From assembly GCA_964489145.1 (NCBI GenBank), contig CAZAXL010000004.1, forward strand, positions 8,176 through 72,175: 64,000 nucleotides of DNA. Direction: 5' to 3'. Shown here in pieces: positions 41,874-63,705 of this stretch. Made by a program: the position numbers and the translations under genes. The notes beneath the pieces are model-generated. The model was not told where the DNA came from. It worked only from the letters and a program-made list of their open reading frames with translations, and did not search any database. Position 1 is the first letter of the stretch; each line of letters begins with the position of its first letter. The DNA comes from an uncultured Gammaproteobacteria bacterium (GTDB lineage Bacteria > Patescibacteriota > Microgenomatia > UBA8517).

Positions 41874-44723
41874 CTAATTGAAAATATATCTCATTAAAAA
41901 TTGGTAGTGAATTGGCCATTTTTGTTGGACGTTTCCACACCTAGGTTGGACAACATAGAGAGCTATTGCTTCCGGTAGAGATTCGCCATCGTTCCAATTT
42001 TGGGTAGCACTATAAAAACAATACGGCGACTCACTTGTTATTCCCGGATACTCTAAATACAACTGATAGAGTTTTGCGGTTTTATTTCCCCACGATAATG
42101 AATGTCCTAGTTCGTGAGAAAGGGTGTAAAGGGCATCTGCCTGATTTTTAACACCAAGTTTGTAAAAATCTACATAGCTTCCATGATTCCAGCCCCAAAA
42201 GCTTTCAAATGAGAAGGGATTGTACCTAAGAGGTAATGATGGATAAGACATACAAACTTTTGAGATGTAACTGCTATATTTTGAAACCATGACACCCCTT
42301 GCATTAACAATGTTGGCATAATATTCTGATGGCCAAGCGTTGGAATCGATATTTAAACATGCCGCCGGGGGAGTGCCTATTGATATAGAGGCCGCACCGG
42401 ACACTTCTTGTTGGGCAGCTTCTTCTGAATCTGCTATGACAGTAAAAGTATCTAAAATAACGGAATCTTTATAATCATTTCCGGAATAATTTTCGGTATA
42501 AGTAAAAACATAAGGGGCACTGGGAGATATTGAATCAGGAATGTCGGTGGACACTTCAGATGGGCAGGTTTTTGTCGGACCCGTCGAAAATATTTGGCAG
42601 TCATTTTTGAAGGCAATATTGGTTAAGGGGCTTTTCTTTGCGGTAACAGTAATGGTATAGCTAATTTGTAGTGGTAATTCAGTGTTTTTAAATGGTCCCT
42701 GAGGGGTTGCTACTTTGTCAACTTGAATGTGGGGGTTCGAACTTAAAGTTGTTATTTGTGTAGGAGGAACAACATAAGCGCCAGAGTTAATGATAAAAAG
42801 AATAAGAGCAACTACTACAGGGAAAACTAAAAGAGTTATCAAAACAGGTGTTCCAATTGAGACAAGAACCGCCCCTCCAAGGGTTGTAAAAAAACTGCCG
42901 ATACTTGTTCCGACAGTTCCCAGATTGATTGTTCCACCTGCGGCCGCCGATGCTAGGCCGAAAGAACCTATTCCGACCACAACTCCCACGAGAGGTCCCG
43001 CAATTGCGAAAGATCCAATTCCCAGAACAGCTCCTATTATGTAGGGGGCGTTTTTCTTGATTTTGTCCCAGGGGATTTTACTTGCAATCCAGCCAACTGC
43101 TGCACCAATTGCAGCTGTTACTACTGCGAGCGGACCACCAGCCAGTCCTAATGCCGCACCCGTTCCGGCACCGGTGGCTGCACCGCCGGCTGCTCCCACT
43201 GCGGTTCCAGTTGCCCCACCCGCTGCAACTCCGACACCTGTTCCAACGGCTTCACCAGCAATCACACCTCCAACCCCGGCAGTCACGACTCCGGTTTCTA
43301 AAACGGCGGTTCCCGCAATGGCACTGACCCCCTCGGTGGCGACAATTGCTGTACTAGCAACCTCAGTCGCAGCCGGTGTTATAATCGTAAAACCAAAATC
43401 AATTCCCAATGAGCTTCCCAGTCCTTCAAAAAAAGTTGAGGCTCCTGGTATTTGCTGGATAATAGGAATAAACACACCGTCCCCAAAGGGGGTGTACTTG
43501 GTTAGTCCAACAACAGAAAGAGCTTGTTGTCCAAGCTCACTGTTATATATTCCCGTAATTAAACTGTCGGAGGGCAATTTCATAATTTGAGAGTCGAGAA
43601 AATTACGGGCTTGTCCAAGCAGGAAACCTTGGGCTTGGTCTTTGCTAAATGAGGTCACACTGTCCAGTAAATTTGATTGAGATTGAAGAAGGTTTGAATA
43701 GCCGTCACTTAGTTGATGAAGATCAATCTCGTGTGTATATCCCTCTATCGGCTGGGTAGTGAGTGTAACTTTAATTTCATTTGGATCGGGTCCAAAAACC
43801 ACAGCAGCAAGATCTCCATTTACAGACGTAAGAATGTTTCTGCTTAGTTGAGTGGAATTATTAAAGAAGGCTAATTCTTGCGTAGCTGTTTTTAAAAAAT
43901 TCTGTACGTTTGCGTCGGAACTAATACTTTTGACGATATTGGTTTCTTTAGAGACAGACTTCAAAATAGCTGTTTGGAAATTTGTTTCTATTTGCTGTGA
44001 GGGGTTGTTAATTGCAAGCACTGTGTCATTTGCCGTTTTGTCAGATAAAACCGTAATTTCTTCTTCTGACAAATTTTTGGCAAATTCGCTCGAGTGAATT
44101 TTTGCCTTTACAATGTTGGAAATTTCTTTTCTGAAAGATTGAGGATATTTTTTGGCTTCCTCAATAAACTGTTTGGTGTTTTCATCCGGTGTTTGAGTTT
44201 GAGGCGCCTCAACTTTTACATAAATTTTTTTATTTTCCAAAAAACTTTGTATTTCTTTTTGTTTTTGTGTTTTTTCTTCAAAAGACTTCTTTATTCTTTC
44301 GATTTCTTGTTGTCTTTTATATGTTTCTTGTTTTTTTCTTAAAGCCTCCTCAACATTTTTTTGAGCACTTTTTTGGGTTTCTTTTAGTTCAGCTTCTCTT
44401 TTTTGCCGTTCGAGTTCCAGAAGTTCCCTCGCTTCTTTATCCGGCAGATTTGAATCAACCGGCTTTTCCTCTTGTTTATTTGAAGTGAGTGCTTCAACGG
44501 CAAGCTGTGCCCTTTTTATATTTTCCAGATCCCTTTCGGATTTAATTAAGACCCCTGTAAGACGACTTATGAAATCTATGAAATCTGCACGGTTTTTCCA
44601 GTTAAACTCACCCGAAACATAAGATTTGTCTGCCGCATAAATTGTGTCTTCGGGGAAAAAATGGGCAAATGCGTCTATTAAATATTTTGTGTTTTCGGAA
44701 GTCAAACTAATTTTATTTGCCAT
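41874..44723 (-). CDS. Large membrane protein of T4SS-like locus: N-terminal coiled-coil domain, Gly/Ala-rich multi-TM segment, C-terminal HExxH zinc-metallopeptidase-like domain
   Basis: Coiled-coil/charged region aa 80-190; ~180-aa G/A/V-rich hydrophobic block; TLSHELGHSL (HExxH) near C-terminus; immediately follows VirB4. Confidence 0.45.
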   Translation of the reverse strand: MANKISLTSENTKYLIDAFAHFFPEDTIYAADKSYVSGEFNWKNRADFIDFISRLTGVLIKSERDLENIKRAQLAVEALTSNKQEEKPVDSNLPDKEARELLELERQKREAELKETQKSAQKNVEEALRKKQETYKRQQEIERIKKSFEEKTQKQKEIQSFLENKKIYVKVEAPQTQTPDENTKQFIEEAKKYPQSFRKEISNIVKAKIHSSEFAKNLSEEEITVLSDKTANDTVLAINNPSQQIETNFQTAILKSVSKETNIVKSISSDANVQNFLKTATQELAFFNNSTQLSRNILTSVNGDLAAVVFGPDPNEIKVTLTTQPIEGYTHEIDLHQLSDGYSNLLQSQSNLLDSVTSFSKDQAQGFLLGQARNFLDSQIMKLPSDSLITGIYNSELGQQALSVVGLTKYTPFGDGVFIPIIQQIPGASTFFEGLGSSLGIDFGFTIITPAATEVASTAIVATEGVSAIAGTAVLETGVVTAGVGGVIAGEAVGTGVGVAAGGATGTAVGAAGGAATGAGTGAALGLAGGPLAVVTAAIGAAVGWIASKIPWDKIKKNAPYIIGAVLGIGSFAIAGPLVGVVVGIGSFGLASAAAGGTINLGTVGTSIGSFFTTLGGAVLVSIGTPVLITLLVFPVVVALILFIINSGAYVVPPTQITTLSSNPHIQVDKVATPQGPFKNTELPLQISYTITVTAKKSPLTNIAFKNDCQIFSTGPTKTCPSEVSTDIPDSISPSAPYVFTYTENYSGNDYKDSVILDTFTVIADSEEAAQQEVSGAASISIGTPPAACLNIDSNAWPSEYYANIVNARGVMVSKYSSYISKVCMSYPSLPLRYNPFSFESFWGWNHGSYVDFYKLGVKNQADALYTLSHELGHSLSWGNKTAKLYQLYLEYPGITSESPYCFYSATQNWNDGESLPEAIALYVVQPRCGNVQQKWPIHYQFLMRYIFN

Positions 44724-44725
44724 AG

Positions 44726-46546
44726 TTATTTACCGGAGTAGGGATTTGTTGCCACCCTAATTACTTCCTGCGGCTTGGTTGTTATAAGCTTGTTCTCATT
44801 CTCCGAGGCAACAATTCTGATTGGTGCGTGGTGAGGTCCGGCAAAGAAAATTCCTTCTCCGACGTTGGCAGCCAGAAGAAGTCTCTTTTCTCCCTGGGAA
44901 AGGTAAAAGACCTCGCCGATTTTATCAATTGCCGCCGGTGATTGCTTCAGGAGGACCTGCATAGCGCTGTTTGTGACAATAGCCTTTCCTATGTCCTGTC
45001 CGAGGAAGTCTTCGACGTCCTGGGTTATCGTAGTGAGTCCCAGATAGTATTTGCGGGCCCTCTTGACAACACTCCAAAGAAATTGCGCCGTATCTGGATA
45101 TCTCATCATGTGCCAAGCCTCGTCAACTATCAGAATTCTTTTCTTTAAATCTTTCTTAACCCTTGTCCAAATATAATCGAGAATTATGAACATGGCGATG
45201 GGGCGGAGTGCATCCTGCAGATCTTTAACGGAGAAAACAGTAAATGGGTTAGTGATATTAATATTCGTTTGCTGATCAAAAATTCCCACAAAACTTCCTT
45301 TGACAAATTTCTCGATTCTGGCGGCCAGATCCAGTGCGTCGGGGACCTCCATTCCAATAAGAGTTTTGTAAAGATCCTCCATTAAAGGCGGTTCTTTTCC
45401 TTGAGTATCAGGATCCATAGTTATTCCCTTGGCTTTATAGGTGATAATCAGGGCTCTATCCAAAAGTGCTTCCTGAGTTGGAGTAATTGCTCCCATGATT
45501 ACTTTCATCAGAGAATGAAGTGAGAGAATTTTAAGTCCAAGCTGGTTTTCTCCCTCCTCCCTGATTTGTGATAAGTCGAAGGGGTTTATTTTTGCGGTTG
45601 AGTTGTAGGAGAAAGAAATGTATTCGCCCCCCACAGCTTCAGCAATGGTTTTGTACTCGCTTTCCGGATCAATAACAATTGTTTCTATCCCAACCATGAG
45701 TGACCTAATTGCTTCCAGTTTGACAAAATAAGACTTGCCGGCGCCACTGGTTGCGAAGATTGTCATATTGGCGTTTTGCAGGCTAAATCTATCAAAAATG
45801 ATAAAAGACTCGTTTTGGGAATTTATACCAAAGAGCACCCCGCGGTCGCTTGAAAGCTCAGTTGAGGTTAAGGGAAAAGTTGTGGCTACGGAGGTTGTGT
45901 CCATATTTCTCGTAATGTTTAACCTGTCTATTCCAAAGGGAGCCGTTGCCGTAAAACCCTCGGACATATCAAGCATGGCGTGTTTACTGACAATCATTAA
46001 GGATCCAAGTTGGGATTCAACCTGTTTGGTTATTTGGTTAAGTTCCTCGGGGGAGTTGGCGGGAATTGTTATGTAAAATCCAAATTCATAAAAACGCTCG
46101 ATTCCCTTGACAAGTTGTTCCTGAAGAGCTTGTGCGTCTTCGAGTTTAGCCTGTGTAACGGGGTCGACGATTTTACCGCGTTCGATATCGGTCATTATCT
46201 CAGCTTCCATTTCGGCAATTTTACGTCTTAGATCATCGAGCACACTTTTTCCGTCTACAGGATAAATGTAAAAAGAAATATCGAGAGAAGTATCTATATT
46301 CACAACCGGCTCAAGCCATCCGGGTGCAACAAATCTCGGATAACCTCCAACAAAAATAGTCCTGAAGTAGATATCGTTTATTTTTAAATAATCAAAATCT
46401 ACCTCGACAGATTGAGGGGAAATCACATCCAATAAACTCATTTTTTGATTCATGACTGAAAAAGCCGGAGATATGATCTGCGGTTTAGCCTCGGTTTCCT
46501 GGATGGGAACCGTCGGTTGCTGGCCTTGTTTATTGTCTGGTTTCAT
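44726..46546 (-). CDS. VirB4/TraC/TrbE-family T4SS ATPase, ATPase (C-terminal) part
   Basis: Walker A FATSGAGKS, VirB4-type Walker B ILIVDEAWHMM, downstream TTITQD; 606 aa is ~200 aa short of full VirB4. Confidence 0.7.
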   Translation of the reverse strand: MKPDNKQGQQPTVPIQETEAKPQIISPAFSVMNQKMSLLDVISPQSVEVDFDYLKINDIYFRTIFVGGYPRFVAPGWLEPVVNIDTSLDISFYIYPVDGKSVLDDLRRKIAEMEAEIMTDIERGKIVDPVTQAKLEDAQALQEQLVKGIERFYEFGFYITIPANSPEELNQITKQVESQLGSLMIVSKHAMLDMSEGFTATAPFGIDRLNITRNMDTTSVATTFPLTSTELSSDRGVLFGINSQNESFIIFDRFSLQNANMTIFATSGAGKSYFVKLEAIRSLMVGIETIVIDPESEYKTIAEAVGGEYISFSYNSTAKINPFDLSQIREEGENQLGLKILSLHSLMKVIMGAITPTQEALLDRALIITYKAKGITMDPDTQGKEPPLMEDLYKTLIGMEVPDALDLAARIEKFVKGSFVGIFDQQTNINITNPFTVFSVKDLQDALRPIAMFIILDYIWTRVKKDLKKRILIVDEAWHMMRYPDTAQFLWSVVKRARKYYLGLTTITQDVEDFLGQDIGKAIVTNSAMQVLLKQSPAAIDKIGEVFYLSQGEKRLLLAANVGEGIFFAGPHHAPIRIVASENENKLITTKPQEVIRVATNPYSGK

Positions 46547-47226
46547 TTGTTTTCAAGTATTACCTCGGGCTCTTTTTTGACGGCTGGCTTTTCCGGATTG
46601 TAAATTGAATAAAACAAGTTTATAAGATCGGGGGTTGTAAGTTGTTTGAATTTAATTCCAAGTCGTCCTGCCTGACGGACAAGATGGTCGCGTCTTGGGT
46701 AAAGAGCAATTTTTGCTTTTTTAATAACATATGATTTAGTAAATGGAAGGGGTCCGGATAATTTCGTAACCGCGGCTATAGATTTTGCTACCCCAAGCTC
46801 AAGTGGAGACAGATAAAGAACGACAAAAAATCTTTTTCCTAAAACATTTTTCTTTTTAACGGATTCGGTTATAAAGTTTTTATAATCCTGCATGAGATTT
46901 GCAAGAAGGGGCTGAGTAATCTTTTTTGATTGCTCATCCAGAAAGTTTAGATATGATGAAATATCTTTCTTTTGGGTTAAAACAACAATTTGTACGGAGA
47001 AAGTAAGTGAATTTACCATGGCTGCATAAGCAGCAATTACGGCTTCCTGTTCTTTTTCCGAAAGGAGCCCAAAGTTTAGGGAACTTGACTCCATGATAAG
47101 TGCTGCTCCGCCATCTTTATAAATAACGATGTCATTGGTAATGTCGGCAACAGGTACAAAATCTTGAGTGGTTGAAGTTAAAGGTTTGTCGGGAATATTT
47201 ATAAATGGAATTTTAGGTATATTCAT
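46543..47226 (-). CDS. Probable VirB4 N-terminal domain encoded as a separate ORF (split VirB4)
   Basis: 227 aa, soluble; DIVIYKDGGAALIMESSSLNFGLLSEKEQE resembles VirB4/TrbE N-domain; ATGA overlaps with flanking genes on both sides. Confidence 0.4.
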   Translation of the reverse strand: MNIPKIPFINIPDKPLTSTTQDFVPVADITNDIVIYKDGGAALIMESSSLNFGLLSEKEQEAVIAAYAAMVNSLTFSVQIVVLTQKKDISSYLNFLDEQSKKITQPLLANLMQDYKNFITESVKKKNVLGKRFFVVLYLSPLELGVAKSIAAVTKLSGPLPFTKSYVIKKAKIALYPRRDHLVRQAGRLGIKFKQLTTPDLINLFYSIYNPEKPAVKKEPEVILENK

Positions 47227-48290
47227 TGGTTTGTTAGTATGTTTGTCGGTTGTTGCATTGGGGTTGCTTGAGTCGTCACAAGTGACCTTCCTTCTACCAG
47301 AATCGGGGGAATAATTTCTCCTTTGGCCTCAAAATTAACGGGCATGAATTGATATCCGTCCTTTTCACTGATAATGCCATATTGGCCGTTATCAAGAGCA
47401 GTGACCGCCATAAAGTGTCCGAGCTTGTTGCTTCTAAGGGCTCTAATGGGCCTGCCGTATTCGTCTCTAATCTCAATAATTGCTCCTTCAATAATTCTTC
47501 TTGCCTCGTCAACAACCTGACCCACCACTACGTTGGGATATGTAGGCGGGTTTGGGGGAGTGGCGTCAATTGAAAAAATGGCTTCTCTGGTAGAAACTAT
47601 TTCTTCCCCAGCAATTGTAGGATTAACATGCTGAGTCTGGACTTGCACTGTTTGAGAAACGGGTTGAACCCTTTCCTCGACGACAAGGTGGGTGGTCTGC
47701 ATGGGGGTTATTTTGACAGATGTGCTTACGGGAATCTCCAGTTTTTTGGGAGCAGGGGGGGGTGTTGGGACGGTGGGGGTTTGGGCTGTGGCCACAGGAG
47801 TTACAGGACCTTTAATGCCGGCAAATATACCGGCAAGGGCAGCCAGGAAACCCTGTTCCGCACCCTCCAATTTAGCAAGAGGTCCGGCCATTTGTTTAGC
47901 GCTTTCCAAATAGTTTTTGAGAGCAGCGTCTTGGTTTTGATTTCCCTGTTGGGGCGGAATATTGCTGACCGCAGTTTCATCTTGAAAAAACCTGGGAACC
48001 TCTTTTGTTTTTTTCCAGTTGAAAATTGTTGGAGAATAGATTGTTTTAAAAAACGATAAAATCCACTGTTCCAGGGGACGCTCCTCAAGAGGGACAAAAG
48101 CCATGGCGGCGCCCAAAATTACAGAGACAATTGCAAACGGCCATTTGATTATTCCAATTAAAGGAGATGAATAAAAAATTAAACCAACCAAAAACCCCCC
48201 CGCAAGCTGAAAGAATTGCTTGAGAGTCATATCTCCCACCAACCGGAATTGGTAAGAAGATATATTTTGCGGAATTGGATGTTGTTCCAT
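47223..48290 (-). CDS. PrgI/VirB3-like membrane protein with ~250-aa C-terminal extension (first gene of operon)
   Basis: DMTLKQFFQLAGGFLVGLIFY...two TM resembles PrgI-family PLTLRQF..L..G block; directly upstream of VirB4 as in monoderm T4SS. Confidence 0.5.
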   Translation of the reverse strand: MEQHPIPQNISSYQFRLVGDMTLKQFFQLAGGFLVGLIFYSSPLIGIIKWPFAIVSVILGAAMAFVPLEERPLEQWILSFFKTIYSPTIFNWKKTKEVPRFFQDETAVSNIPPQQGNQNQDAALKNYLESAKQMAGPLAKLEGAEQGFLAALAGIFAGIKGPVTPVATAQTPTVPTPPPAPKKLEIPVSTSVKITPMQTTHLVVEERVQPVSQTVQVQTQHVNPTIAGEEIVSTREAIFSIDATPPNPPTYPNVVVGQVVDEARRIIEGAIIEIRDEYGRPIRALRSNKLGHFMAVTALDNGQYGIISEKDGYQFMPVNFEAKGEIIPPILVEGRSLVTTQATPMQQPTNILTNQ

Positions 48291-48431
48291 GCTTTAAGGC
48301 AGGGCGAAGAATATTAAAAGCAATCTTTTTTGTCTTTACCCTATACTTCTAGGCTACAGCGTGAACGACTGCTTTCAAGTGGTATACTTTTTCACAACAA
48401 ATAAGTATTAATCTTTCGCTTCAAGGCAATC

Positions 48432-51152
48432 TTGTTATATAATTTACATATGCCCGACGGTATGTCACCTGAAAACAAACCACAATCAAGTATTGAATTT
48501 ATGAAATCCCTCGGAGGACCGACCAGACTTCCTGCTAATGAAATAACAGGCCAGGCTGCGAAAGATTTTCCTCAACCTGAATCAAGAGCTAATGTTCCGG
48601 ATATAAGGATGCAGGTGGGCAATGGTGATGAAGAAAGTAATGCAGCAGCGGAGCGTGCAAAGCTGGAATATTTAATACGAATGGGTGAGCTTATGGGTTC
48701 AGAAGAGGGTGGGGGTTATTTAAATAAGTTTATAGACAACATTCGGGGTTTATCCAAAAAAGTAGAAGACCCCACAACTCACGAGTCAAGAAATAAAACC
48801 GAGGAAGAGAAAGATAAAGTTAGGGAGAATATTGCAGAGGCTTACGTTCATCTGTGCCATGCAGAGCTTGATGAAATAAACACAATAAATAAATATCTTG
48901 AGGATTTGAAAAACCCATTCCCTTACGATTCAAGGTGGACAATCCAGACTTTTGAAAGGATCGAAGAAAGAATAAATGGAGTACTTAGGGAAAAGAAAGG
49001 TAGGGCAGTTGATGGTGAAGGTAGGGCGCTACTCCATATGTACAAAAGGGATCTGAAGTGGGCGCTAGCCACAGCAAAAATAAACGAAGCAATGGGGCCA
49101 GCCTACGAGCTTTATTTTGACGGTGAGTTAGAAATGCAGCGCCTAAGAACTCCGCATAGCGAAGTTAAAGCATCAGATTTCATGAGTGCTTTTCAGGGAC
49201 ACGAAACCGGTTTTGAGAAGGATGTACTTGATGAAGAAAATAAATTAATACAGAAAACACTTTTGAAGATTCCACCCGAATATCTTAAAGATGTGGACGG
49301 AGAAAACACTTTTAAAGAAAAGACTTTGGTGGAAAAGGCAATAGAATATCAAGATTTATATAGCACACTGTCGCTCGATGCTTTCGCTTCGGCCCAAAAA
49401 AATCTTGAATATGGGTTCGGTGCTGGAGACGATAAAGAAGCTGGAAATCATTATAAAAACATAGATTATGTTACCTTTCGCTTAATGAATGAACTTTTTA
49501 GCTCTTCTAAGGCAGTTGAGGATGGAAAAGTTGTGGAAGCAGAGGACGAGAATTTAGTTTATGTTAATCGAAAAGGAGAGGGATTTAATGTTAAAGCTCA
49601 TCCGATTTTGAACCCTCACAATATGCAGAGGGATGACGATCTTGCCTACCGTCAATATTATTCGAGGATGCATGAGCTTATGCTTCATTGGAATGATGCT
49701 TACAGTAGTCAAATTGATGAAGTTAGGAATGTTTCAGACTTGTCAAAAGACGATATAGACGAAAAAATTAGAGCAATTGCCGACGGAATTGTAGCTAAAG
49801 CGGATAAAAGAGCTAAATCACAAAGAACTTTAGACGAAGGCCATCCGTATGACAGGTTAATAGATACTGTAATTAATTCTCAAATTAATCTGGAACGCGG
49901 AATTCTTGCAAGTGGAGAGTATGGCTGGGGTTGGTCTTATAATGAGAAGACTGATAAAAGAGGAAATGTTGTGGTAGTAAGGAAATCTGAACTTGGAAGC
50001 ATATATGATAACCACGATCTCACAACTATGGTTTATTGGGCTAGGCACATTATTGACTACGATAACATGGGGGAGACACGGGGAGCTCTTCTGTTTCCTA
50101 CAATTGGCAGTTACAGAGAAAGGTGGATGAGCGAACCTCCATATTGGAAGCCGGAATTGACTGAGTTTGCCCAAAATGATAACACTCTTCTTCGAAGATT
50201 AGGGTTGGAAGGCAGTTATGGGATTCTTTCCCAGAAAAATTTCCTGGAGGATAAAGTTGGTAGAAAAACGTACTTTAAGGGGGCGAAAGGGTGGCAAGAG
50301 CAAAAATATGGCAAGTTTGATGAGTCTTGTGCAAAGTATATCAAAGAGAACGCCTGGGCATTTGTTACTTGTTGGTTAAACGAACCTGGTAAAGGGAGCG
50401 ATGAATACAATCTTGTCTTCCCAGTCTTTTTACCGACAATGATTGAAGATGTTAATTTTTGGAGATCTGTTAGCCTCCAGGGACCGTCTGAAAAAATTAA
50501 TACTTACCCTCTTGCAGATCCTAAAAAGGGTGATCCAAAAAGTCTTTGGAATGAAAGGATGGAAGGGAAAAAGTTGTCAGAAATGCGGTGGGAATATATG
50601 TCCAAGTATAAATACAATTGGACAATGGTGAACCTGGATCAGATGGAGCGCTGGTTTGGGCCAATGGTAACGCCACACGATTTCAATAAGTCAACCGCGC
50701 CGGAATTTGAAAAACACTACAACATGCCAGGTGGTAAAAGTGAAAAAGAGGCAGGGAAAAGAGGAAGATTGGGAGCAAGGGGCTCACGTTGGGTGGATGG
50801 AGTTATTAGAGCAACGGTTTTGGCCCAAAACAAGGTGCTATCTGCGGTCCAGTTAAGTGGAGTTATGGGTGTGGATGTTTCTGCGCTTACAAATGTAAAT
50901 GAGAGAAATTCTTCCTTGAATAAGGAATTGGATACATGGAGATTAAATTGGATAGCCCCTTGGATAAACACAATGCTAGATATGCCCTCCGATGTGCGCA
51001 AGGTTAAAAATTATGGAGGAACAGCTGCTCAATCACTTCTGGTGTCTTACCTTCAAGTTCGAAGAATTATAGCCTCTGCTGTTGCCCACAGTAATGGTCA
51101 AAAGCTGGACGTTAACAAATCTATAGACCAAATAGAAGAAGGATTTACTTAA
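48432..51152 (+). CDS. Large soluble hypothetical protein (906 aa), plus-strand gene inside the minus-strand T4SS-like locus
   Basis: No TM, no recognisable motifs; TATAAT lies inside the first codons, so true start may be MPDGMSPEN at 48450. Confidence 0.4.
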   Translation: MLYNLHMPDGMSPENKPQSSIEFMKSLGGPTRLPANEITGQAAKDFPQPESRANVPDIRMQVGNGDEESNAAAERAKLEYLIRMGELMGSEEGGGYLNKFIDNIRGLSKKVEDPTTHESRNKTEEEKDKVRENIAEAYVHLCHAELDEINTINKYLEDLKNPFPYDSRWTIQTFERIEERINGVLREKKGRAVDGEGRALLHMYKRDLKWALATAKINEAMGPAYELYFDGELEMQRLRTPHSEVKASDFMSAFQGHETGFEKDVLDEENKLIQKTLLKIPPEYLKDVDGENTFKEKTLVEKAIEYQDLYSTLSLDAFASAQKNLEYGFGAGDDKEAGNHYKNIDYVTFRLMNELFSSSKAVEDGKVVEAEDENLVYVNRKGEGFNVKAHPILNPHNMQRDDDLAYRQYYSRMHELMLHWNDAYSSQIDEVRNVSDLSKDDIDEKIRAIADGIVAKADKRAKSQRTLDEGHPYDRLIDTVINSQINLERGILASGEYGWGWSYNEKTDKRGNVVVVRKSELGSIYDNHDLTTMVYWARHIIDYDNMGETRGALLFPTIGSYRERWMSEPPYWKPELTEFAQNDNTLLRRLGLEGSYGILSQKNFLEDKVGRKTYFKGAKGWQEQKYGKFDESCAKYIKENAWAFVTCWLNEPGKGSDEYNLVFPVFLPTMIEDVNFWRSVSLQGPSEKINTYPLADPKKGDPKSLWNERMEGKKLSEMRWEYMSKYKYNWTMVNLDQMERWFGPMVTPHDFNKSTAPEFEKHYNMPGGKSEKEAGKRGRLGARGSRWVDGVIRATVLAQNKVLSAVQLSGVMGVDVSALTNVNERNSSLNKELDTWRLNWIAPWINTMLDMPSDVRKVKNYGGTAAQSLLVSYLQVRRIIASAVAHSNGQKLDVNKSIDQIEEGFT

Positions 51153-51161
51153 ATTGTATTT

Positions 51162-52889
51162 CTAACGCTCCCCGGGCCCTTTCTGGCCGCCGGTACCTGG
51201 TTGTCCGCCTTGTTTTTGCATACTCTTCAAGATATCATTCAACACTTTCATTGCTCCTCGTCCTCCACCCCTGCTTTCAATTGCTTGCTGCAACCTTCCC
51301 GCTGCATATGTCGTTCCAGCTTCTGCTCCATATTTCTGTACACCGGAGGCAACTCCACTAAACGGTCCCAGAGCCTCACCAATTCCTGTTCCTGCAAATT
51401 CTTTGCCTGCCATAAATGATTCGATAGCCTCAGATATTTTTGGTATCATCATGATTATACCAACACTCATCAACAAAAATGCAATTGCCGTAGCAGAAGC
51501 GGGGTTTCCTAGCATTGGAGGTCCCCAAGCATTGCAAAAATCTAGAGTATTAGCAGGGTCAAAAAATTCAATTCCTGTAAATTTACTTATCAACCCCAAC
51601 TCCAATCTTAGTACGGGTTTAAGTATGCTCATGAGACCGTTGTTGCAAATAGCGCCGTATACAGATGTGGCCATGGAGTATCCCAGTAGGAAAAAAGATA
51701 TATAAATGAATATTCCGGTAAGGGGAAATACTAGTAGTTTTGAAAACAATTTCTTGAGCCAGCTACTAAAACCCGACTGTGGAAAGAGTGTGCCCATGGT
51801 GATCTGGAGTGGGGCAATTATTATAAGGCCATACACTGCCGCTAGGTTTTTAAAAAGCATAAATATGACTCTGACAGTGCTTACAATAAGTATAAGTAGC
51901 AAGATTATTGTGAAGATAATGAGAAGCAGGCTAAAAAGTGTTGAAGAAATATGGAAACCTGAAACCGATGCTAATAAAGCAACGACCGCAGCAACAAAAA
52001 ATAATATTATATATGCGATAAAATAAAAAAATATTGCGATACCACCATCTTGTAGAAGTGGGATAGACCCGTTGATGAAAGCAAAAATAATTTTTCCCTC
52101 TGCCACCTTCAAAAAATTTGTTGGAATAAAGGACGACATCATAGCAGAAAATACACCCATAATGACATATATTAGGTCAATCATGAATCCAGCAATCGCG
52201 AATGAAAATGTTACTAAAATAAGCGAAATAACTATTTTAGGTAAAGCAGATTGAACACTAATTACTAGTTGAGGGGATAACTTAACCCTCAACATGATCA
52301 TAAAAGCGAAAACAATTGTTACTATTACGAACAGGAAGAAGGAGAAATTTCTGGTTAGTCCCCAAAGTGGTCTAATTACTGTTAATACCGTATAACCATA
52401 TCCGGTGGTTTGGGCGTGAACTTCCGTAACCGGGTCCAGTTTTCTTATTATGTTTTTGACATAACTAATGCCAGAAATTGGTCTATCAGCAAAAATCTGG
52501 GAAGCAATAGATGGTTGATGTTGTGTGTTTTCGGTTAAACCAAGGTCGGCTGTAGAATCATTTATAAAATTAGTGAGACCATCAACACAAGCATCTAGTT
52601 GAATATTTGACGCAACGGCCCCCATAAAACAACTGGCAACATCAGTATTGCCTCCGGTTACCAAGTTAATAAACATAGAAGGAAGGCTGTAGATAATCCA
52701 TTGAACCTGAGCTGCGGTATAACGCTCTCCAAAAATTTCATTTTGATTTGAATTGTCGTATACCTTTAGGTACCATTCAGGGAGAGATTGGTTGTACCAA
52801 GTTGTTTGAGCCTTGGCCTGAGAGAATGGGCCGAGGGAAATAAGAAAAGTAGTGCCGATTAGGATGGATATGAGCAGTTTTTTAAACAT
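51162..52889 (-). CDS. Polytopic membrane protein, VirB6/TrbL-like (inferred)
   Basis: Signal peptide, ~150-aa extracytoplasmic N-domain, >=6 TM, Gly/Pro/Gln-rich C-terminal tail (GGQPGTGGQKGPGER) as in TrbL; position between surface protein and VirB3/4. Confidence 0.4.
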   Translation of the reverse strand: MFKKLLISILIGTTFLISLGPFSQAKAQTTWYNQSLPEWYLKVYDNSNQNEIFGERYTAAQVQWIIYSLPSMFINLVTGGNTDVASCFMGAVASNIQLDACVDGLTNFINDSTADLGLTENTQHQPSIASQIFADRPISGISYVKNIIRKLDPVTEVHAQTTGYGYTVLTVIRPLWGLTRNFSFFLFVIVTIVFAFMIMLRVKLSPQLVISVQSALPKIVISLILVTFSFAIAGFMIDLIYVIMGVFSAMMSSFIPTNFLKVAEGKIIFAFINGSIPLLQDGGIAIFFYFIAYIILFFVAAVVALLASVSGFHISSTLFSLLLIIFTIILLLILIVSTVRVIFMLFKNLAAVYGLIIIAPLQITMGTLFPQSGFSSWLKKLFSKLLVFPLTGIFIYISFFLLGYSMATSVYGAICNNGLMSILKPVLRLELGLISKFTGIEFFDPANTLDFCNAWGPPMLGNPASATAIAFLLMSVGIIMMIPKISEAIESFMAGKEFAGTGIGEALGPFSGVASGVQKYGAEAGTTYAAGRLQQAIESRGGGRGAMKVLNDILKSMQKQGGQPGTGGQKGPGER

Positions 52890-52922
52890 GACAGGTGCCT
52901 CTAATTGATTATTAGGATAGCA

Positions 52923-55313
52923 TTAATTTGGGTAATTAGGTAGTGCTATTCCCGGTGCAATGACGGAATAAATAAAGTTCAAATCGTTCGTATAACTTGA
53001 TATTTTATCTTTTTCGTTTTGATTTAGTGGGGAGCAGTGTCCAAACCAAAACATTGAAATAAAGGTACTCATATCCTTTTTACCACACTTGGCAGCGTAT
53101 GAACTTGGTAAATTTAAAAAGAAGTCTAGTTGTTTACTAAAATTATTAGTTGGTACACTTTGATTACCGTGGATGCCAAAATCTTCGACAGGATAGTTTA
53201 CAGCCTCGTAATTACTTGCATCGGATTCATGTATCCAGATGGCAAGAGTAAATATTGGATCTATATTTTTGTTTTTTGACCTCTGAATAACATCATTATT
53301 ACATTCTTTGAAGTAAGGTCTGCCGGGACCCGTCGCATACCAGATCTTGGTTATATTTTCCGCCTCGGTTTTGTTTAAACCATTCACAGCAATTTCCGGA
53401 ATGGTTTGATTGCAATTTATTTCACCGCTACTGCTCGAATCTTCATCAGAATTCGGTGCAAAAGAAATTGCGTCACCAAGCCCTTTGGGTCTGAGAGCGG
53501 TTTGGATACCATTTAAGAAATATTCGGAAATTCCTCCCAGATGGGGGAGTTTTAAATCGGTGTTTGATTGAGAGACATTCGTGCCTGAATAATTAATATT
53601 AGTAGATCCCGGCATATCCATTATCTGCCCGACGCTTCCAGCCGTGTTGGTTTTTGGGAAAATTCTCTTGAAAACCGCCATTGGACCCGCCACAAGGCGC
53701 GACCAAATATCGTCGGCGAGAGGAATTTTTGAGGTAGTTGAGAGGTTGATATAAACATCTTTTTTACACTCCTGGGTAGAAGTGGGCGCGGAGGTCGGGT
53801 TAGCATCAGGATAGAGACAATCTGCTCGGCATTCGTTGGGCGCGCCTCCGAAATAAGTACATCTTTCATAGCAACCGGTGGGGATAGGGGCGTCAAAAGT
53901 ACAAGAAAAATTGGCTGTATAGGAAAGATCCCCCGTCAGCTGTGTGGCAAAAAGATCATCTCCCTTATTTGAACGCACCTCAACGGTATTACAGGAAGTT
54001 TCCGATGCAACATTTGTCGGACTCCCGACTTTATCCTCCCCTTTTGGAGTATAGGTATCTTGCAGGAGAGAACTAAGTTGGTCAGATTCTTCCATGTGGG
54101 AGAAAAAAAGAGTAGCGGGATTTTGATTTGAGAATGCAATATTTTTTACGATTACATTTGAGTCTGACGTGCCTTGCGCGGATGATACTTGGTCGATGGA
54201 AATATTTCCTTCGACATCCTCAGTTGAAGAGAGGGGAATGTAGGAAAAGAGATCCGAATATTCATTCGAAATAAGAATATTATTCAAGCACAAAAGTATT
54301 TTAGGAAAAGGAGTAATAATACAAGAGTTTCCCTGCCATTCCTTATACGCTTTTTGATATGTTAAAGAGTCAAAGGGCTTGCCGCTTGGATCAACTCCCC
54401 AGGAAAGCGGAGGGACTCGATACGGCCAAGCTTTATTCTGGTCTAATGCCTGTGTGATAATATCTCCCGGAATAGATGGAAATGTATTAAGAAAAAGATC
54501 GAGAAGTGAAATGCCGGCGTTTTGTAGGGTATTTACAATCGAAAGATTTCCATCCCAGTTTGTTAATCTCCATTTCTCTTCACCCGGACAATCGGTGGCA
54601 ACTGTTTGACCGACGCCCAGGTTCTCCAAACCCCATTTAAGGAAAGATGGAATTAGGCTGGAGTTGATTTCTTTTTTTGTGCAAACCACAACCTGGTCGT
54701 GTCTTGTGACTTTTGCGTTTTTTATTTGCGTAAACCTATTTGCGTTTTGGATTTCCAACGGAAGAAGCTTGGCTAAGGGGCCAGAAAAATTTACTAATGA
54801 ATCATCGTCACTCTTATCAGGATATTCTTTTTTGTTTGTTACTCCTCCAAGATACCAACTTACGTAATCATTCATTTTGTCGGCGTCTGAAAGCGCGTCT
54901 TCGGTGTTGCCCATAAAAGGCAGGTCCGCACCGCTTAAATCAATCGTTACTTTGTGGCTGGGGACAGACACGTTGTATGTGCAATAAACTTTACTTCCTT
55001 TTGTGGTACAATTTCCGCCTCCTCCTGTGTATGTTTTTTCGATGGTTTCCTTCAAGGTGAGATTGTTTCCGCAAAAAGTTGCCTCACTGGCCGTTTGAGA
55101 AGTGCATTGGGTATTTGCTTGGTATGGACGAAGAGAGTTAAATTCAGTATCGGAAACATTTCCACAGGAGATATTTGTGTTAGCAGGAACTTGGGCATTT
55201 ACAGTTCCAATTTCTAATTTCAAATTTCTAATTTCTAATAAAATTACAATTAATAAAATTACAAGAACTGAAAGTTTAAAATTCGAGATTTTAGATTTGA
55301 GATTGAGAATCAT
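52923..55313 (-). CDS. Large Cys-rich secreted/surface protein (796 aa), possible C-terminal lysozyme-like domain
   Basis: N-terminal TM/signal anchor, many Cys pairs, C-terminal FTLAIWIHESDASNYEAV resembles transglycosylase ES motif (weak). Confidence 0.35.
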   Translation of the reverse strand: MILNLKSKISNFKLSVLVILLIVILLEIRNLKLEIGTVNAQVPANTNISCGNVSDTEFNSLRPYQANTQCTSQTASEATFCGNNLTLKETIEKTYTGGGGNCTTKGSKVYCTYNVSVPSHKVTIDLSGADLPFMGNTEDALSDADKMNDYVSWYLGGVTNKKEYPDKSDDDSLVNFSGPLAKLLPLEIQNANRFTQIKNAKVTRHDQVVVCTKKEINSSLIPSFLKWGLENLGVGQTVATDCPGEEKWRLTNWDGNLSIVNTLQNAGISLLDLFLNTFPSIPGDIITQALDQNKAWPYRVPPLSWGVDPSGKPFDSLTYQKAYKEWQGNSCIITPFPKILLCLNNILISNEYSDLFSYIPLSSTEDVEGNISIDQVSSAQGTSDSNVIVKNIAFSNQNPATLFFSHMEESDQLSSLLQDTYTPKGEDKVGSPTNVASETSCNTVEVRSNKGDDLFATQLTGDLSYTANFSCTFDAPIPTGCYERCTYFGGAPNECRADCLYPDANPTSAPTSTQECKKDVYINLSTTSKIPLADDIWSRLVAGPMAVFKRIFPKTNTAGSVGQIMDMPGSTNINYSGTNVSQSNTDLKLPHLGGISEYFLNGIQTALRPKGLGDAISFAPNSDEDSSSSGEINCNQTIPEIAVNGLNKTEAENITKIWYATGPGRPYFKECNNDVIQRSKNKNIDPIFTLAIWIHESDASNYEAVNYPVEDFGIHGNQSVPTNNFSKQLDFFLNLPSSYAAKCGKKDMSTFISMFWFGHCSPLNQNEKDKISSYTNDLNFIYSVIAPGIALPNYPN

Positions 55314-55350: not shown

Positions 55351-55632
55351 TTAGGGGAGGACTATATTGAAGTTTGTTACATCAACCCCTGTGATATTTG
55401 TGATCAACAAAAGAATTAGATAGGAAAGAAGAATAATGATAAGTCCAGCAATTGCGGAAGTTAGGGTTTTTTTGGCGCTCTCGACAGCTTTTGGGTCACC
55501 ACCGGAAGTGATAAATTTGAACCCCCCAACTACAAGAAGAACAAAGAGAACAATTCCGGCAAAACCTAAAGCATAGCCTACAACCCTTTGGAACAGAACC
55601 CCGAAATCCTCAATTGTTGCAACATCTTCCAT
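55351..55632 (-). CDS. T4SS pilin-like small two-TM protein, paralog 8 (VirB2/TrbC-like)
   Basis: TM1 - SGGDPKAVESAKKTLTSAIAGLIIIL - TM2 shared family motif. Confidence 0.5.
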   Translation of the reverse strand: MEDVATIEDFGVLFQRVVGYALGFAGIVLFVLLVVGGFKFITSGGDPKAVESAKKTLTSAIAGLIIILLSYLILLLITNITGVDVTNFNIVLP

Positions 55633-55677
55633 AACAACACCATTTTAGAGTAAACAGCGAAGTCGAGCAAGAGAGAC

Positions 55678-56025
55678 TTACTGAGGAATGGTAGGAATGG
55701 TCAGGACGTTTAACACATCAAGCCCAAAAAAGACCTTGATGAGAGCCAGAATTGCCCAGGCAGCAAATACGATAACAAGTCCAACTAAGGCCGCTGTTAT
55801 CTGATTTCTTGCAGCTTCTGTTTGAGCCTTGTCTCCACCAGAGGCGATCCAGCGAATTCCACCTATTACTAAAATGAAGAAGAATATGATTGCAGCTATA
55901 ACAACTGAAAGTCTTATTAGACCGGAAACGATTCCAGAAACCGTAAGATTACCCAACGTAGAAAACTGCCCAACTGGCTGAAGATCTATAGGTGCGTTAT
56001 CGGCGACGGCGAGTAATTTTTGCAT
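55678..56025 (-). CDS. T4SS pilin-like small two-TM protein, paralog 7
   Basis: ASGGDKAQTEAARNQITAALVGLVIVF motif between two hydrophobic helices. Confidence 0.5.
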   Translation of the reverse strand: MQKLLAVADNAPIDLQPVGQFSTLGNLTVSGIVSGLIRLSVVIAAIIFFFILVIGGIRWIASGGDKAQTEAARNQITAALVGLVIVFAAWAILALIKVFFGLDVLNVLTIPTIPQ

Positions 56026-56040
56026 ATCTTATTGTGTATA

Positions 56041-56403
56041 TTATCGAATTATTAGATTACCTATGTCAAGAGTCAATATTGAAACACCAATAAAGCCTTC
56101 TATAAGTTTGACGATAGCAAACACAGAAAACATAATAACGAGTCCGATAATAGCGCTCGTGATTTTTCCTCTTGCGTTCTCAAGAGATTGTTTATCTCCA
56201 CCAGAGGATATCCATTGAATCGCTCCAATAATTAACATAAAGAAAAAAATTACAACCCCAACAACGAAGGCTAAAGTTATAAGGTTGGGGATGAAGGTCT
56301 GAAAAAAACTTAAACCGCTTGCGTTATCACCCAAGCCCCCCAATACTGGATTTTTAATTTCAGAAGCTCCCCCTGTTGCTCCCGCTAGTAAATTATTTGA
56401 CAT
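56041..56403 (-). CDS. T4SS pilin-like small two-TM protein, paralog 6
   Basis: SSGGDKQSLENARGKITSAIIGLVIMF motif. Confidence 0.5.
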   Translation of the reverse strand: MSNNLLAGATGGASEIKNPVLGGLGDNASGLSFFQTFIPNLITLAFVVGVVIFFFMLIIGAIQWISSGGDKQSLENARGKITSAIIGLVIMFSVFAIVKLIEGFIGVSILTLDIGNLIIR

Positions 56404-56411
56404 TTTTATGT

Positions 56412-56801
56412 TTATGGATTGACAGTGTTGCCTGTAATAACACTAAAGAGTGATGGAAAATTTAAAATATCGGGAATACCAAGGAGTTCTCCTACCAGTT
56501 TTATGGCAAATATTGAAACAATAACGATGATAAGCCCAATTATTCCGTTTACAATCCTTTTTCTTGCAGATTCGACTGCGGCCTTATCCCCGCCAGAAGA
56601 CATGTAACTAATTGCACCGGTAATAAATAGGAAAACCGACCATATGATTGCTATAACAGTTATTATTCCTATAAACGAAGAAAGGAAGTTTGTAAAGATA
56701 ATATCTGCATTACCGGCCTCGCTTCCTTGGAGTCCAAGTTTGCCAAACCCTTTAAATCCGCCATCTGGAGCTATTTTAATTTCTGCCAATAAATTTTTCA
56801 T
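56412..56801 (-). CDS. T4SS pilin-like small two-TM protein, paralog 5
   Basis: SSGGDKAAVESARKRIVNGIIGLIIVI motif. Confidence 0.5.
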   Translation of the reverse strand: MKNLLAEIKIAPDGGFKGFGKLGLQGSEAGNADIIFTNFLSSFIGIITVIAIIWSVFLFITGAISYMSSGGDKAAVESARKRIVNGIIGLIIVIVSIFAIKLVGELLGIPDILNFPSLFSVITGNTVNP

Positions 56802-57151
56802 TAAAGTGTTGGAATTACCGGATTAAGAATAAAATCCCATTTGCCAAAAATCAATTGACCAAAGAGTGCTGCGAGAACAAAGGCTCCTGCTGAAAATGCA
56901 AGTCCTAATGCTGTTTGCCAAATCTTTGCCCAAGCTCCTGCAACTTTTTTGGGGTCATCCCCTGCGGACATAAATGCGTATCCGGCCAAAACAAAATTAA
57001 ATAAAGCATATATTGAGGCTCCTATTATCAAAATCCAAATAACCTTTTGTATCAATGCTCCGATAGCCACACCCGGTTCCCCACTATACTTTTCCAAACC
57101 CGATGGGGGAGGAATGACTCCAAAAGGATTTGCTGCTAATAATTTTGTCAT
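56801..57151 (-). CDS. T4SS pilin-like small two-TM protein, paralog 4 (most diverged)
   Basis: SAGDDPKKVAGAWAKIWQTALGLAF variant motif; start overlaps stop of the upstream paralog. Confidence 0.45.
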   Translation of the reverse strand: MTKLLAANPFGVIPPPSGLEKYSGEPGVAIGALIQKVIWILIIGASIYALFNFVLAGYAFMSAGDDPKKVAGAWAKIWQTALGLAFSAGAFVLAALFGQLIFGKWDFILNPVIPTL

Positions 57152-57152
57152 T

Positions 57153-57461
57153 TTAGAAAATAAGATTTTGTACCCCCAAAAGAGAACTAACCAATTTTAC
57201 TATCCAATAGGATGTAAATACAATAACAAAGCCGATTACGGCCGAAGTAATAGTTTTTTTAGCTTGCTCGGCTTTCTGGGGATCGCTTTGTCCTGCGCTT
57301 CCTATCATGCCGATCCCTCCCAGGATAAAAAAGAAAAGGAGAATGAGACCCGCAAGAACAAAAGCAATATTTAAGAAAAGTGAAACCACAGAACCTATCC
57401 CTGTAATGTTTTTGAAAGCACTTAAACCAGATTTTCCTAGAAAGGCATCACCTATATTCAT
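57153..57461 (-). CDS. T4SS pilin-like small two-TM protein, paralog 3
   Basis: SAGQSDPQKAEQAKKTITSAVIGFVIVF motif. Confidence 0.5.
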   Translation of the reverse strand: MNIGDAFLGKSGLSAFKNITGIGSVVSLFLNIAFVLAGLILLFFFILGGIGMIGSAGQSDPQKAEQAKKTITSAVIGFVIVFTSYWIVKLVSSLLGVQNLIF

Positions 57462-57526
57462 ACTACAATTTTATTGTAAAGCCATTTTATTATAATAGAC
57501 CTTCTGAAGCAAGTCAGTGTAGATTG

Positions 57527-57859
57527 TTATTTTCCACCGAAGATTTGACTAAAAAAAGTACCTTCAAGACCAAGAACCTGCCCAAAAATTTGGACGATTG
57601 TGAAGGCAAAAAAGACAATAATAAAACCAATCACGGCATTCGTGATTTTTGTTTGAGCAGATTGCATAGCTTTGGGGTCTCCTCTTGAGGTCATCATTTG
57701 CAGGCCGCCGATCACTAGATAAATCAGAAGTGCGACTCCGGCTGCACCAAATATATATGGAAGTATCATACTAATGACATCCCCAACTTTTGCTTCTCCG
57801 CCAAATTTAAAATTTGGAAATGCGCGTGTTTGTATATCGTCAAAATTTTGTGCAAGCAT
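57527..57859 (-). CDS. T4SS pilin-like small two-TM protein, paralog 2
   Basis: SRGDPKAMQSAQTKITNAVIGFIIVF motif; start moved to MLAQNF (the track's longer ORF overlaps paralog 1). Confidence 0.5.
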   Translation of the reverse strand: MLAQNFDDIQTRAFPNFKFGGEAKVGDVISMILPYIFGAAGVALLIYLVIGGLQMMTSRGDPKAMQSAQTKITNAVIGFIIVFFAFTIVQIFGQVLGLEGTFFSQIFGGK

Positions 57860-57860
57860 G

Positions 57861-63339: not shown

Positions 63340-63699
63340 GGGGACGATCGGTCTCGACGGAAAGCTCTTTACAATACTGCAAGCCAAGTTTGATCAACAC
63401 TTGTCAAAAGAGATCAAAAAACAAAAGCTAACTCTAACAGGTCAGCTTCAGCTAACTACGCATTAGCGTACGCTTAACTGACGTCCTTAGATTTGATTCT
63501 CGGTTGAATCGAAAGGGTGTAAACCAATCCGGGATGCCATTCAAATTTTTAACTAGAGATTTAAATGAAAGAATTTTAGTTTTACTTTAAACCGTCCTGT
63601 TAGTTGGTTAGGTTTAGAGGACATAAAATAAACTAAATAAGCTTGTAGAAGTGTTGTTTTAAGTATTTTCGGACGCGGGTTCGATTCCCGCCGTCTCCA
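63340..63699 (+). ncRNA. ssrA: tmRNA (SsrA), with CCA not encoded
   Basis: 5' GGGGACGATCGGTCTCGACGG pairs with 3' CGTCTCC+A; T-arm GCGGGTTCGATTCCCGC; internal tag ORF ending ...ANYALAYA-TAA (63427..63477); directly after smpB. Confidence 0.8.
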
Positions 63700-63705
63700 C
63701 AAAGC

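Follow-up and report, generated by a model that had tools for sequence, protein, structure and literature searches.

What is the large gene that sits between the two operons of a type IV secretion system (T4SS) locus on the chromosome of an ultrasmall Microgenomatia bacterium of the candidate phyla radiation and is transcribed from the strand opposite to both? The gene occupies positions 48450..51152 (+ strand) of a 64,000-nucleotide stretch of contig CAZAXL010000004.1, hereafter the window, and encodes 900 amino acids (aa) followed by a stop codon. The initial annotation, made from the letters of the window alone, had described it as a 906-aa orphan gene lying in opposite orientation inside a T4SS-like locus. 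Its orientation and setting were confirmed, with PrgI/VirB3-like, TrsD-like and VirB4 genes on one side and a membrane-protein gene on the other. The position between these flanks is referred to here as the slot, and its occupants in the window and in related loci as slot genes. The locus type was already known (PMC12102498, PMC10633639, PMC12857230); the main new result is the modularity of the slot protein, in which a shared N-terminal module is joined to bodies that are exchanged within one slot.

The module comprises residues 1–54 of the target protein (48450..48611, + strand; MPDGMSPENKPQSSIEFMKSLGGPTRLPANEITGQAAKDFPQPESRANVPDIRM). It is proline-rich (MPDGMSPEN...FPQPE...PDIRM) and is predicted to be disordered, since its predicted local distance difference test (pLDDT) score lies below 50 in both structure models. 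In the profile search that defined family F1, to which the target belongs, 1.84 billion proteins were covered, and some of the matches extended over only the first 55–100 positions. A 57-aa profile of the module returned only fragments from a 5.8-billion-protein database, and loci were scanned by a degenerate DNA pattern. The same module was found in front of two other classes of body, F2 and F3. The F3 protein P0016 (900 aa) is identical to the target at 53 of 54 positions over residues 1–54, where the similarity ends, and the module is also carried by the F2 proteins P0017, P0105, P0106 and P0108, of which P0107 and P0114 are remote relatives. Once the module had been removed, the F1 body (75 sequences) and the F2 body (52 sequences) were aligned by hhalign with a probability of 0.2%, and P0016 reached a probability of 0.1% against either of them. 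The slot bodies were thereby shown, by profile comparison, to fall into at least three classes without detectable homology. Tails of type A (PDIRM), type B (Y.PD..GGG) and other types occur in both larger classes, in 20, 8 and 47 representatives of F1 and in 12, 6 and 34 of F2, respectively. A B-type tail precedes an F2 body in the slot of locus L024 and an F1 body in L013, and distant lineages have other or shorter tails.

The boundary between module and body is sharp at the DNA level. In three loci carrying F3 (L015, L018 and L020), identity to the window stays at 90–92% and stops exactly at position 48611, where codon 54 ends (...PDIRM); the block that follows (48612..52697; 4.09 kb) has no DNA similarity to these contigs. 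This block spans the body of the slot gene and most of the convergent membrane-protein gene. L015 aligns to 48362–48611 and next to 52698–53695, and the alignments of L018 and L020 end at 48611. In L003, which carries a distant F1 subclass, the breaks are at 48619 and 52686, and in L021 (F2) the break is at 48614, so that the first break in L003 and the break in L021 fall at most 8 nucleotides (nt) from 48611. Comparison of the module between the window and L015 (P0016) revealed 14 synonymous codon differences and one non-synonymous difference, corresponding to a non-synonymous rate (dN) of 0.008, a synonymous rate (dS) of 0.64 and a dN/dS of about 0.012; even the PDIRM codons vary at synonymous sites. 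These values show that the module sequence is under strong purifying selection. With synonymous differences predominating, the module is conserved at the peptide level, as a functional element and not as a mere handle for DNA recombination. An origin of the variability from a diversity-generating retroelement, repeats or a mobile element was considered and rejected, as there are no meaningful repeats, RNA families or tRNA in or beside the block. A phage origin was likewise rejected, as neither the module nor the F1 family occurs on viral contigs.

The two parts of the slot protein also differ in their histories. Identity to the window ranged from 76% to 95% for VirB4, from 66% to 87% for TrsD and from 48% to 80% for PrgI, and for the slot body it was 23–53% or undetectable. 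L003 has the closest VirB4 (94–95%), yet its slot body is just 23% identical, and loci with a VirB4 identity of about 84% have bodies with 46–53% identity. The core genes correlate with each other (Spearman 0.64–0.84; 10–11 loci), whereas the slot body shows no correlation with the core (0.14–0.27 by global identity over 10–11 loci; −0.04 to 0.03 against VirB4, TrsD and PrgI by normalised local score). For the first 60 residues the correlation with VirB4, TrsD and PrgI is 0.34–0.47 (Mantel p = 0.02), where in distant F2 members the tail is short and the 60 residues take in some of the body. Taken at the level of sequence, these comparisons show that the tail follows lineage, that the body is exchanged, and that the history of the body is decoupled from that of the T4SS core.

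The second gene touched by the 4.09-kb block encodes a convergent membrane protein of 575 aa. The similarity of L015 resumes at 52698, inside this gene past its first ~64 codons. The corresponding head of the protein (about 64 residues, consisting of the signal peptide and ...EIFGERYTAAQVQW) is 77% identical to L015, and the remainder is about 31% identical despite flanking DNA with 90% identity. Across loci, the N-terminal 64 aa are conserved and the body of this protein ranges from 31% to 51% identity. The shared block had raised the idea that the slot body and the membrane protein form a co-adapted pair, and this was rejected as a general rule: across 10 loci, the body of the membrane protein correlates with VirB4 (Spearman 0.61) and hardly with the slot body (0.16).

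The slot itself is conserved. In 12 of the 12 loci in which both flanks are present (the window, L001, L002, L003, L006, L008, L012, L013, L014, L022, L023 and L024), a slot gene was found with the PrgI/TrsD/VirB4 operon on one side and the membrane-protein/pilin operon on the other, its strand being opposite to theirs. Slot genes are large, encode proteins without a signal peptide and occur once per locus; the slot is occupied by F2 in L014, L022, L023 and L024, and the position is kept even by F1 members that are only ~18% identical to the target (P0097). Partial loci agree with this arrangement: upstream of the F3 gene, L018 has the same PrgI gene and intergenic region, and downstream of it, L015 has orthologs of the 575-aa and 796-aa genes of the window. 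The entire dnaA-dnaN-...-SpoIID-bPH-DUF5657 region is syntenic throughout, including genes that do not belong to the T4SS. As a separate observation, the gaps around the slot gene gather variable small genes in certain lineages (L022:8067-8591, + strand; L014:9483-9860, − strand; L022:14148-14504, − strand), among them a PycTM (Pycsar-type effector) gene and 23S_rRNA_IVP genes, while the window and L001 have none. The region around the slot gene may be an insertion hotspot.

The target is a real gene. Its open reading frame (ORF) runs uninterrupted on the + strand from 48432 to 51152, with 906 codons counted from a TTG, and by our own arithmetic a frame of this length would stay open by chance with a probability of about 1e-26 at ~40% GC and ~6% stop codons. 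The 106 representatives of the family and a confident structure prediction further support its reality. The true start is almost certainly the ATG at 48450 and not the TTG at 48432, because homologs begin at a conserved MP[DE], as all close homologs do, and because the spacing to a −10-like box is constant; the initial annotation was thus right about the frame and six codons too long. The box (TATAAT, 48438..48443, + strand) ends 6 nt upstream of the ATG. All ortholog loci examined (window, L001, L002, L003 and L006/L007) have a TAnAAT box at this 6-nt distance, and none of them has a Shine-Dalgarno sequence before the ATG. The residues LYNL of the TTG-extended ORF are simply the box translated in frame, and in-frame YN residues upstream of the start reveal the same box in F2 entries. 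A generic promoter scan did not list the box at 48438–48443. The transcript of the target gene is probably leaderless, as suggested by this layout. A leaderless start was rejected as a special feature of the target, given that 16 of the 54 predicted genes of the window have a −10-like box 5–8 nt before the start codon. Only 6 of the 54 have a Shine-Dalgarno-like sequence, which suggests that leaderless transcripts are widespread in this organism.

With its own −10 box and a start apart from the structural operons, the target gene forms a transcription unit of its own. The 159-bp intergenic region that separates it from the divergent PrgI-like operon (48291..48449) retains about 92% nucleotide identity in L018 and L020. 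The GC fraction of this region is 0.34 against 0.396 for the window, so that it is AT-rich, as initially described, but modestly so, and it extends to 48449 and not to 48431. At the other end, the stop codon occupies 51150–51152, the convergent neighbour gene ends 9 bp away, and no terminator hairpin was found at the 3' end of the target gene.

The word orphan does not fit the gene. The F1 family has 106 representatives, all of them unnamed, and the homologs with an assigned organism belong to Candidatus Woesebacteria and Microgenomates; as delineated by profile search, F1 is a lineage-restricted family without a name and not a strict orphan. F2 is likewise an unnamed Microgenomates/Woesebacteria family, with 51 hits. 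Other parts of the initial description held up better. The target protein has no match in Pfam, NCBIfam, PADLOC, PHROGs or a PDB sequence profile, in agreement with the claim that it contains no recognisable motifs, and it has neither a hydrophobic segment nor a signal peptide, which is consistent with its being soluble. PADLOC and PHROGs also gave no match for the F1 and F2 representatives or for P0016 (F3); the NCBIfam search covered the F1 protein of the window.

The F1 body (about 846 aa; 48612..51149, + strand) is predicted to adopt a compact, mainly helical fold with three beta regions. The AlphaFold2 model of the target, computed from a 75-sequence alignment, reached a pLDDT of 88.5 and a predicted template modelling score of 0.88. 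Foldseek searches with this model found no fold match in the PDB (best E 0.064, template modelling score ≤0.14) or in BFVD (best E 0.019), and no homology to a housekeeping enzyme was detected, the gene being present throughout the T4SS loci of its relatives. Columns conserved in at least 90% of F1 are R294, Q316, G516, P658, P662, K770, R771, L774, R777 and W838. No column of His or Cys is conserved in as many as 50% of the members, an HUH-like signature is absent, Walker A motifs are no more frequent than expected by chance (3 of 75 members), and no ATPase or nuclease motif was found in F1. The C-terminus is a confidently folded long helix (residues 855–899, pLDDT >90), and the last 30 aa of F1 have a median net charge of +1. 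The C-terminal secretion signal that the initial annotation had thought worth looking for is thus not seen in F1, and the disordered, signal-like element lies at the N-terminus. As an observation on the other class, F2 C-termini (e.g., those of P0017, P0105, P0106 and P0108) carry a conserved basic motif, VGRVxGK[RK]xx, which looks like the basic C-terminal signals of T4SS substrates and is missing from the F1 protein of the window.

How, then, might such a protein work? The explanation that we favor, to which we assign slightly less than an even chance, is that a conserved N-terminal docking and translocation tag is joined to an exchangeable payload exported by the T4SS. The slot protein would be a two-part protein dedicated to the Microgenomatia T4SS. 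Residues 1–54 would form a disordered tag that signals translocation and docks on the conserved cytoplasmic side of the T4SS, with VirB4, TrsD, PrgI or a coupling protein encoded elsewhere as its possible partner. Residues 55–900 would be a payload of novel fold, exported towards or into the host cell of the epibiont and replaced through homologous recombination in the conserved flanks under host–parasite conflict. Because the target lacks a transmembrane (TM) segment and a signal peptide, any export would have to proceed via a dedicated system, and the VirD4-like protein encoded inside the locus of L024 would fit the delivery of cytoplasmic substrates to the machine. The T4SS of Patescibacteria has no relaxase, and protein export or another role has been proposed for it (PMC10633639, PMC11665869, PMC12102498), although its role has also been called 'completely unknown' (PMC11665869). 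Hosts sense and actively fight epibionts (PMC13622651), which makes a host–epibiont arms race plausible. A broader generalization, in which slot proteins are dedicated exchangeable cargo or host-specificity determinants and the module represents a new N-terminal class of T4SS signal, is put forward tentatively. The two best-supported options of the initial annotation, a secreted substrate or effector and an accessory factor, have both been strengthened, because the slot is fixed down to ~18% identity, the gene has its own promoter, the tag is conserved and the bodies are exchanged; secretion itself is something that we infer.

Several findings weigh against an exported payload with an N-terminal tag. 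The T4SS signals known so far lie at the C-terminus, where a coupling protein reads them. F1 has no C-terminal translocation signal, neither a domain of the BID or XVIPCD type nor a tail that is basic or disordered, and no VirD4-type coupling protein is encoded in the 64-kb window. None of the F1, F2 and F3 bodies contains a toxin or enzyme domain recognisable by Pfam or PDB sequence search. The A-type (PDIRM) motif is present in only 32 of the 127 F1 and F2 representatives, and other tails are found in distant lineages, so the tag is specific to some clades. It was found only on slot proteins, one per locus, and therefore is not a general signal of an effector repertoire. Within a body class, divergence is moderate (the above 46–53% identity where VirB4 is at ~84%), and a well-defined fold with invariant residues would suit a component of the machine too. 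Moreover, synteny extends over the whole region, so that the position of the slot alone is no proof of a functional link.

Some of these points speak for a protein that never leaves the cell. The slot protein could remain in the cytoplasm of the epibiont as an accessory factor, tethered by its tag to the base of the T4SS, with a body that serves as a substrate receptor, a gate, a regulator or a processor of imported material and thereby replaces the absent coupling protein; we regard this as possible but doubtful. The lack of an export signal, the presence of exactly one copy per locus and the restriction of the tag to slot proteins are all expected for such a factor, as are the confident, conserved fold with its invariant basic motif (K770-R771-x2-L774-x2-R777) and the absence of a type IV coupling protein (T4CP) from the window locus, and import of host nucleic acids through the T4SS has been discussed (PMC11665869; bioRxiv 10.64898/2026.06.21.733656). 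However, bodies without detectable homology are found between flanks that are 90–92% identical, and the history of the body is fully decoupled from that of VirB4, TrsD and PrgI; both features are unusual for a subunit that has to fit a machine with 76–95% conservation. The lack of an ATPase or nuclease motif and the transcription of the gene separately from, and opposite to, the structural operons also count against an accessory role. The same exchange of bodies, independent of the machine, would suit an exported and surface-retained element of host recognition, for instance one that determines the specificity of the T4SS pilus or conduit in the manner of a tip protein or adhesin. Here a conserved N-terminus, a sharp junction and a swapped body would be arranged as in receptor-binding proteins, rapid divergence is also seen in the adjacent envelope proteins and the array of eight pilins, and cultivated Microgenomatia are host-specific and form tube-like structures at the contact site (bioRxiv 10.64898/2026.06.21.733656). 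We nevertheless consider this explanation rather unlikely: the protein has no signal peptide or anchor and consists mostly of long helices, with no adhesin-like or Ig-like domain and no fold match. Known T4SS tip proteins, such as VirB5, are moreover Sec-dependent.

The remaining two explanations take the gene to be unrelated to the T4SS or to encode a relaxase or coupling ATPase. A lineage-specific gene for conflict, defence or cell biology, functionally unrelated to the T4SS and residing in a recombination-prone gap, would be compatible with the synteny of the whole dnaA to DUF5657 region, including genes outside the T4SS, and with the small genes, both PycTM of the defence type and 23S_rRNA_IVP, that gather in the gap between PrgI and the slot gene. 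It appears distinctly unlikely given the presence of the slot gene in all 12 loci with both flanks, always between the two T4SS operons, the co-variation of the tag with the T4SS core proteins, and the absence of PADLOC or PHROGs matches and of occurrences on viral contigs. A novel relaxase, one of the roles suggested initially, or a divergent coupling ATPase would fit the large size and cytoplasmic nature of the protein and its place in a locus that derives from conjugation but has neither function (PMC12102498). Nevertheless, this is extremely improbable: given that His and Cys columns are not conserved and that a signature of the HUH kind is missing, the protein is unlikely to have an HUH-type metal site, and the Walker A motif expected of a coupling or VirB11-type ATPase stays at 3 of 75. 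The protein has no TM anchor, it matches no relaxase, T4CP, AAA or TraG model and no known fold, and sister strains substitute unrelated bodies for it. A genuine VirD4-like protein, moreover, is encoded separately in L024. The exported, tagged payload is thus retained as the working explanation, with the accessory factor as the rival that it most needs to be distinguished from.

The genes around the slot identify the system. On the side facing the start of the target gene, the divergent operon (− strand) begins with a PrgI/VirB3-like gene (47223..48290; PF12666, E 9.5e-07), followed by a TrsD/TraC-like gene whose product resembles the N-terminal part of VirB4 (46543..47226; NF041427, E 3.8e-08) and whose orthologs in other loci carry PF26593, and by a VirB4 ATPase of the CD1110 family (44726..46546; NF045971, E 3.6e-110, above the curated cut-off). 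VirB4 is represented by a separate TrsD-like N-terminal protein and an ATPase, whose genes share 4 bp in the window. Two ORFs of 218 and 394 aa seem to make up the ATPase in L008 (6230-8054, − strand), a split that may reflect a frameshift or an assembly error. The product of the next gene (41874..44723, − strand) has 949 aa and three TM segments in its central part; no match was found for the window copy, and proteins at the same position contain Peptidase_M23 in L002 and Amidase_2 in L014 and reach 2012 aa in L008. A 187-aa anchored protein (− strand) also lies on the PrgI/VirB4 side, and then dnaN and dnaA (+ strand).

Beyond the 3' end of the target gene, the convergent polytopic membrane protein of 575 aa (51162..52889, − strand) has a signal peptide and about eight TM segments. 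The window copy has no Pfam match at E≤1 and no NCBIfam match at E≤0.1, and Pfam matches to VirB6, TrbL and PrgH are absent at E≤1 from four orthologs. The label VirB6-like given to it initially is thus compatible with its topology and position, and a VirB6/TrbL sequence match at E≤1 does not accompany them; VirB6 is hard to detect in Microgenomatia (PMC12102498). The following gene encodes a 796-aa protein that is N-terminally anchored or secreted, as judged from hydropathy (52923..55313, − strand). Its C-terminal 256 aa are 94% identical to L015, and the protein at its position in L013 has a weak SLT_3 match. The fast-evolving 949-aa and 796-aa envelope proteins are probably cell-wall hydrolases of the system. 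Eight small VirB2-like pilin paralogs with two TM segments each follow in tandem (55351..58268, − strand); the first of them matches PF18895 and NF045849, and orthologous arrays elsewhere are annotated as T4SS_pilin. The number and order of the pilins are kept across loci at 43–78% identity, the paralogs being divergent. Rapid divergence was thus also noted for the 796-aa, 949-aa and 575-aa envelope neighbours and for the pilin array.

Past the pilin array lies SpoIID (+ strand), followed by a bPH_2 protein, DUF5657 and a 630-aa protein with one TM segment and no family match (60976–62868, + strand), which closes the syntenic block and has counterparts of ~620–630 aa in L003, L012 and L023. 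This protein was considered as the missing coupling protein and rejected, as it shows no similarity to the VirD4-like gene of L024. The latter gene (L024:16750-18885, + strand) interrupts the pilin array, shares the strand of the slot gene and matches NF045973 of the CD1115 family (E 7e-10) and, weakly, TrwB_AAD_bind and TraG-D_C. T4CP homologs are often encoded elsewhere in the genomes of Patescibacteria (PMC12102498). The rest of the window is ordinary chromosome, with UvrD, an AddA-like protein, GroEL, a tRNA synthetase and tmRNA, and the only Rfam matches are the tmRNA (63340–63702, + strand; 157 bits) and one tRNA (17729–17800, + strand). By its gene content, the locus is the origin-proximal T4SS resembling the mating-pair-formation type FATA (MPF-FATA) that is known from Patescibacteria and whose 2025 description includes TrsD, PrgI and pilin arrays but not a relaxase (PMC12102498).

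A gene that is always present in the Microgenomatia locus, with a selected tag that tracks the machine and a body exchanged independently of it, provides a testable hypothesis of a substrate or specificity factor. Throughout Patescibacteria the T4SS is conserved, and the one species tested so far cannot grow as an epibiont without it (PMC10633639, PMC11665869, PMC12857230). If the proposed explanation is true, slot proteins would be the first concrete substrate candidates for a T4SS that is essential in cultivated Patescibacteria, and epibionts would diversify their cargo through cassette replacement, like polymorphic toxin systems. The short tag peptide offers a possible handle for reporter fusions, pull-downs and complex prediction, and the F1 body offers ~850 residues of confidently predicted structure with no fold match in the PDB or BFVD. 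The first cultivated Microgenomatia strain, reported in 2026 with T4SS-like tubes at the host interface, provides a Microgenomatia–host pair that makes such experiments feasible (bioRxiv 10.64898/2026.06.21.733656).

Comparison with known systems places the locus and the slot protein differently. The locus agrees with the MPF-FATA-like T4SS of Patescibacteria (PMC12102498; PMC10633639) in its monoderm-type VirB4, TrsD, PrgI/VirB3 and VirB2-like pilin array, in the lack of a relaxase and in adjoining dnaA/dnaN in Microgenomatia. In these papers, however, the slot gene is unannotated, and neither the shared N-module nor the exchange of bodies is described. The literature searched contained no mention of the slot gene, of modular or polymorphic T4SS proteins in Microgenomatia, or of polymorphic toxins in the candidate phyla radiation. 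Toward polymorphic toxins, XVIPCD effectors and receptor-binding proteins, the relationship of the slot protein is one of analogy and not of membership. Polymorphic toxins such as CdiA-CT/VENN, Rhs, LXG and MIX/FIX combine a trafficking part with a toxin part. They share with the slot proteins a conserved N-terminal part followed by non-homologous C-terminal parts, a sharp junction after a short motif (here PDIRM) and an exchange that is decoupled from the secretion machine. Unlike in those toxins, the variable part measures ~700–1000 aa and has no recognisable toxin domain, the conserved part consists of only ~54 disordered residues, and the machine is a T4SS. No immunity-like gene follows the slot gene, the next gene being that of the convergent 575-aa membrane protein, 9 bp away.

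Within T4SSs, the X-Tfe proteins of Xanthomonas are substrates used against other bacteria, in which a conserved recognition domain is combined with variable effector domains. That domain (XVIPCD) is folded, C-terminal, ~120 aa long and read by VirD4, whereas the module is disordered, N-terminal and ~54 aa long, the window encodes no VirD4, and the sequences showed no relationship. CagA, which belongs to the cag T4SS of Helicobacter pylori, is a single protein of very large size dedicated to its system; it has a unique fold and no Sec signal, is encoded in the T4SS island and is polymorphic between strains. The target resembles it as one big dedicated protein of unique fold encoded in a T4SS locus, but there is no homology or fold match between them. 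CagA also targets eukaryotic cells and needs the chaperone CagF and a coupling protein, and it varies by repeat motifs, whereas slot proteins are replaced over their whole body. In phage receptor-binding proteins and tail fibres, finally, a conserved N-terminal attachment part is combined with an exchanged distal part, with breakpoints at the junction. The slot proteins have no similarity to phage proteins, do not occur on viral contigs and are helical, not fibre-like, in their predicted fold; the likeness lies in the arrangement itself, a conserved N-terminus and an exchanged body with the breakpoint at their junction.

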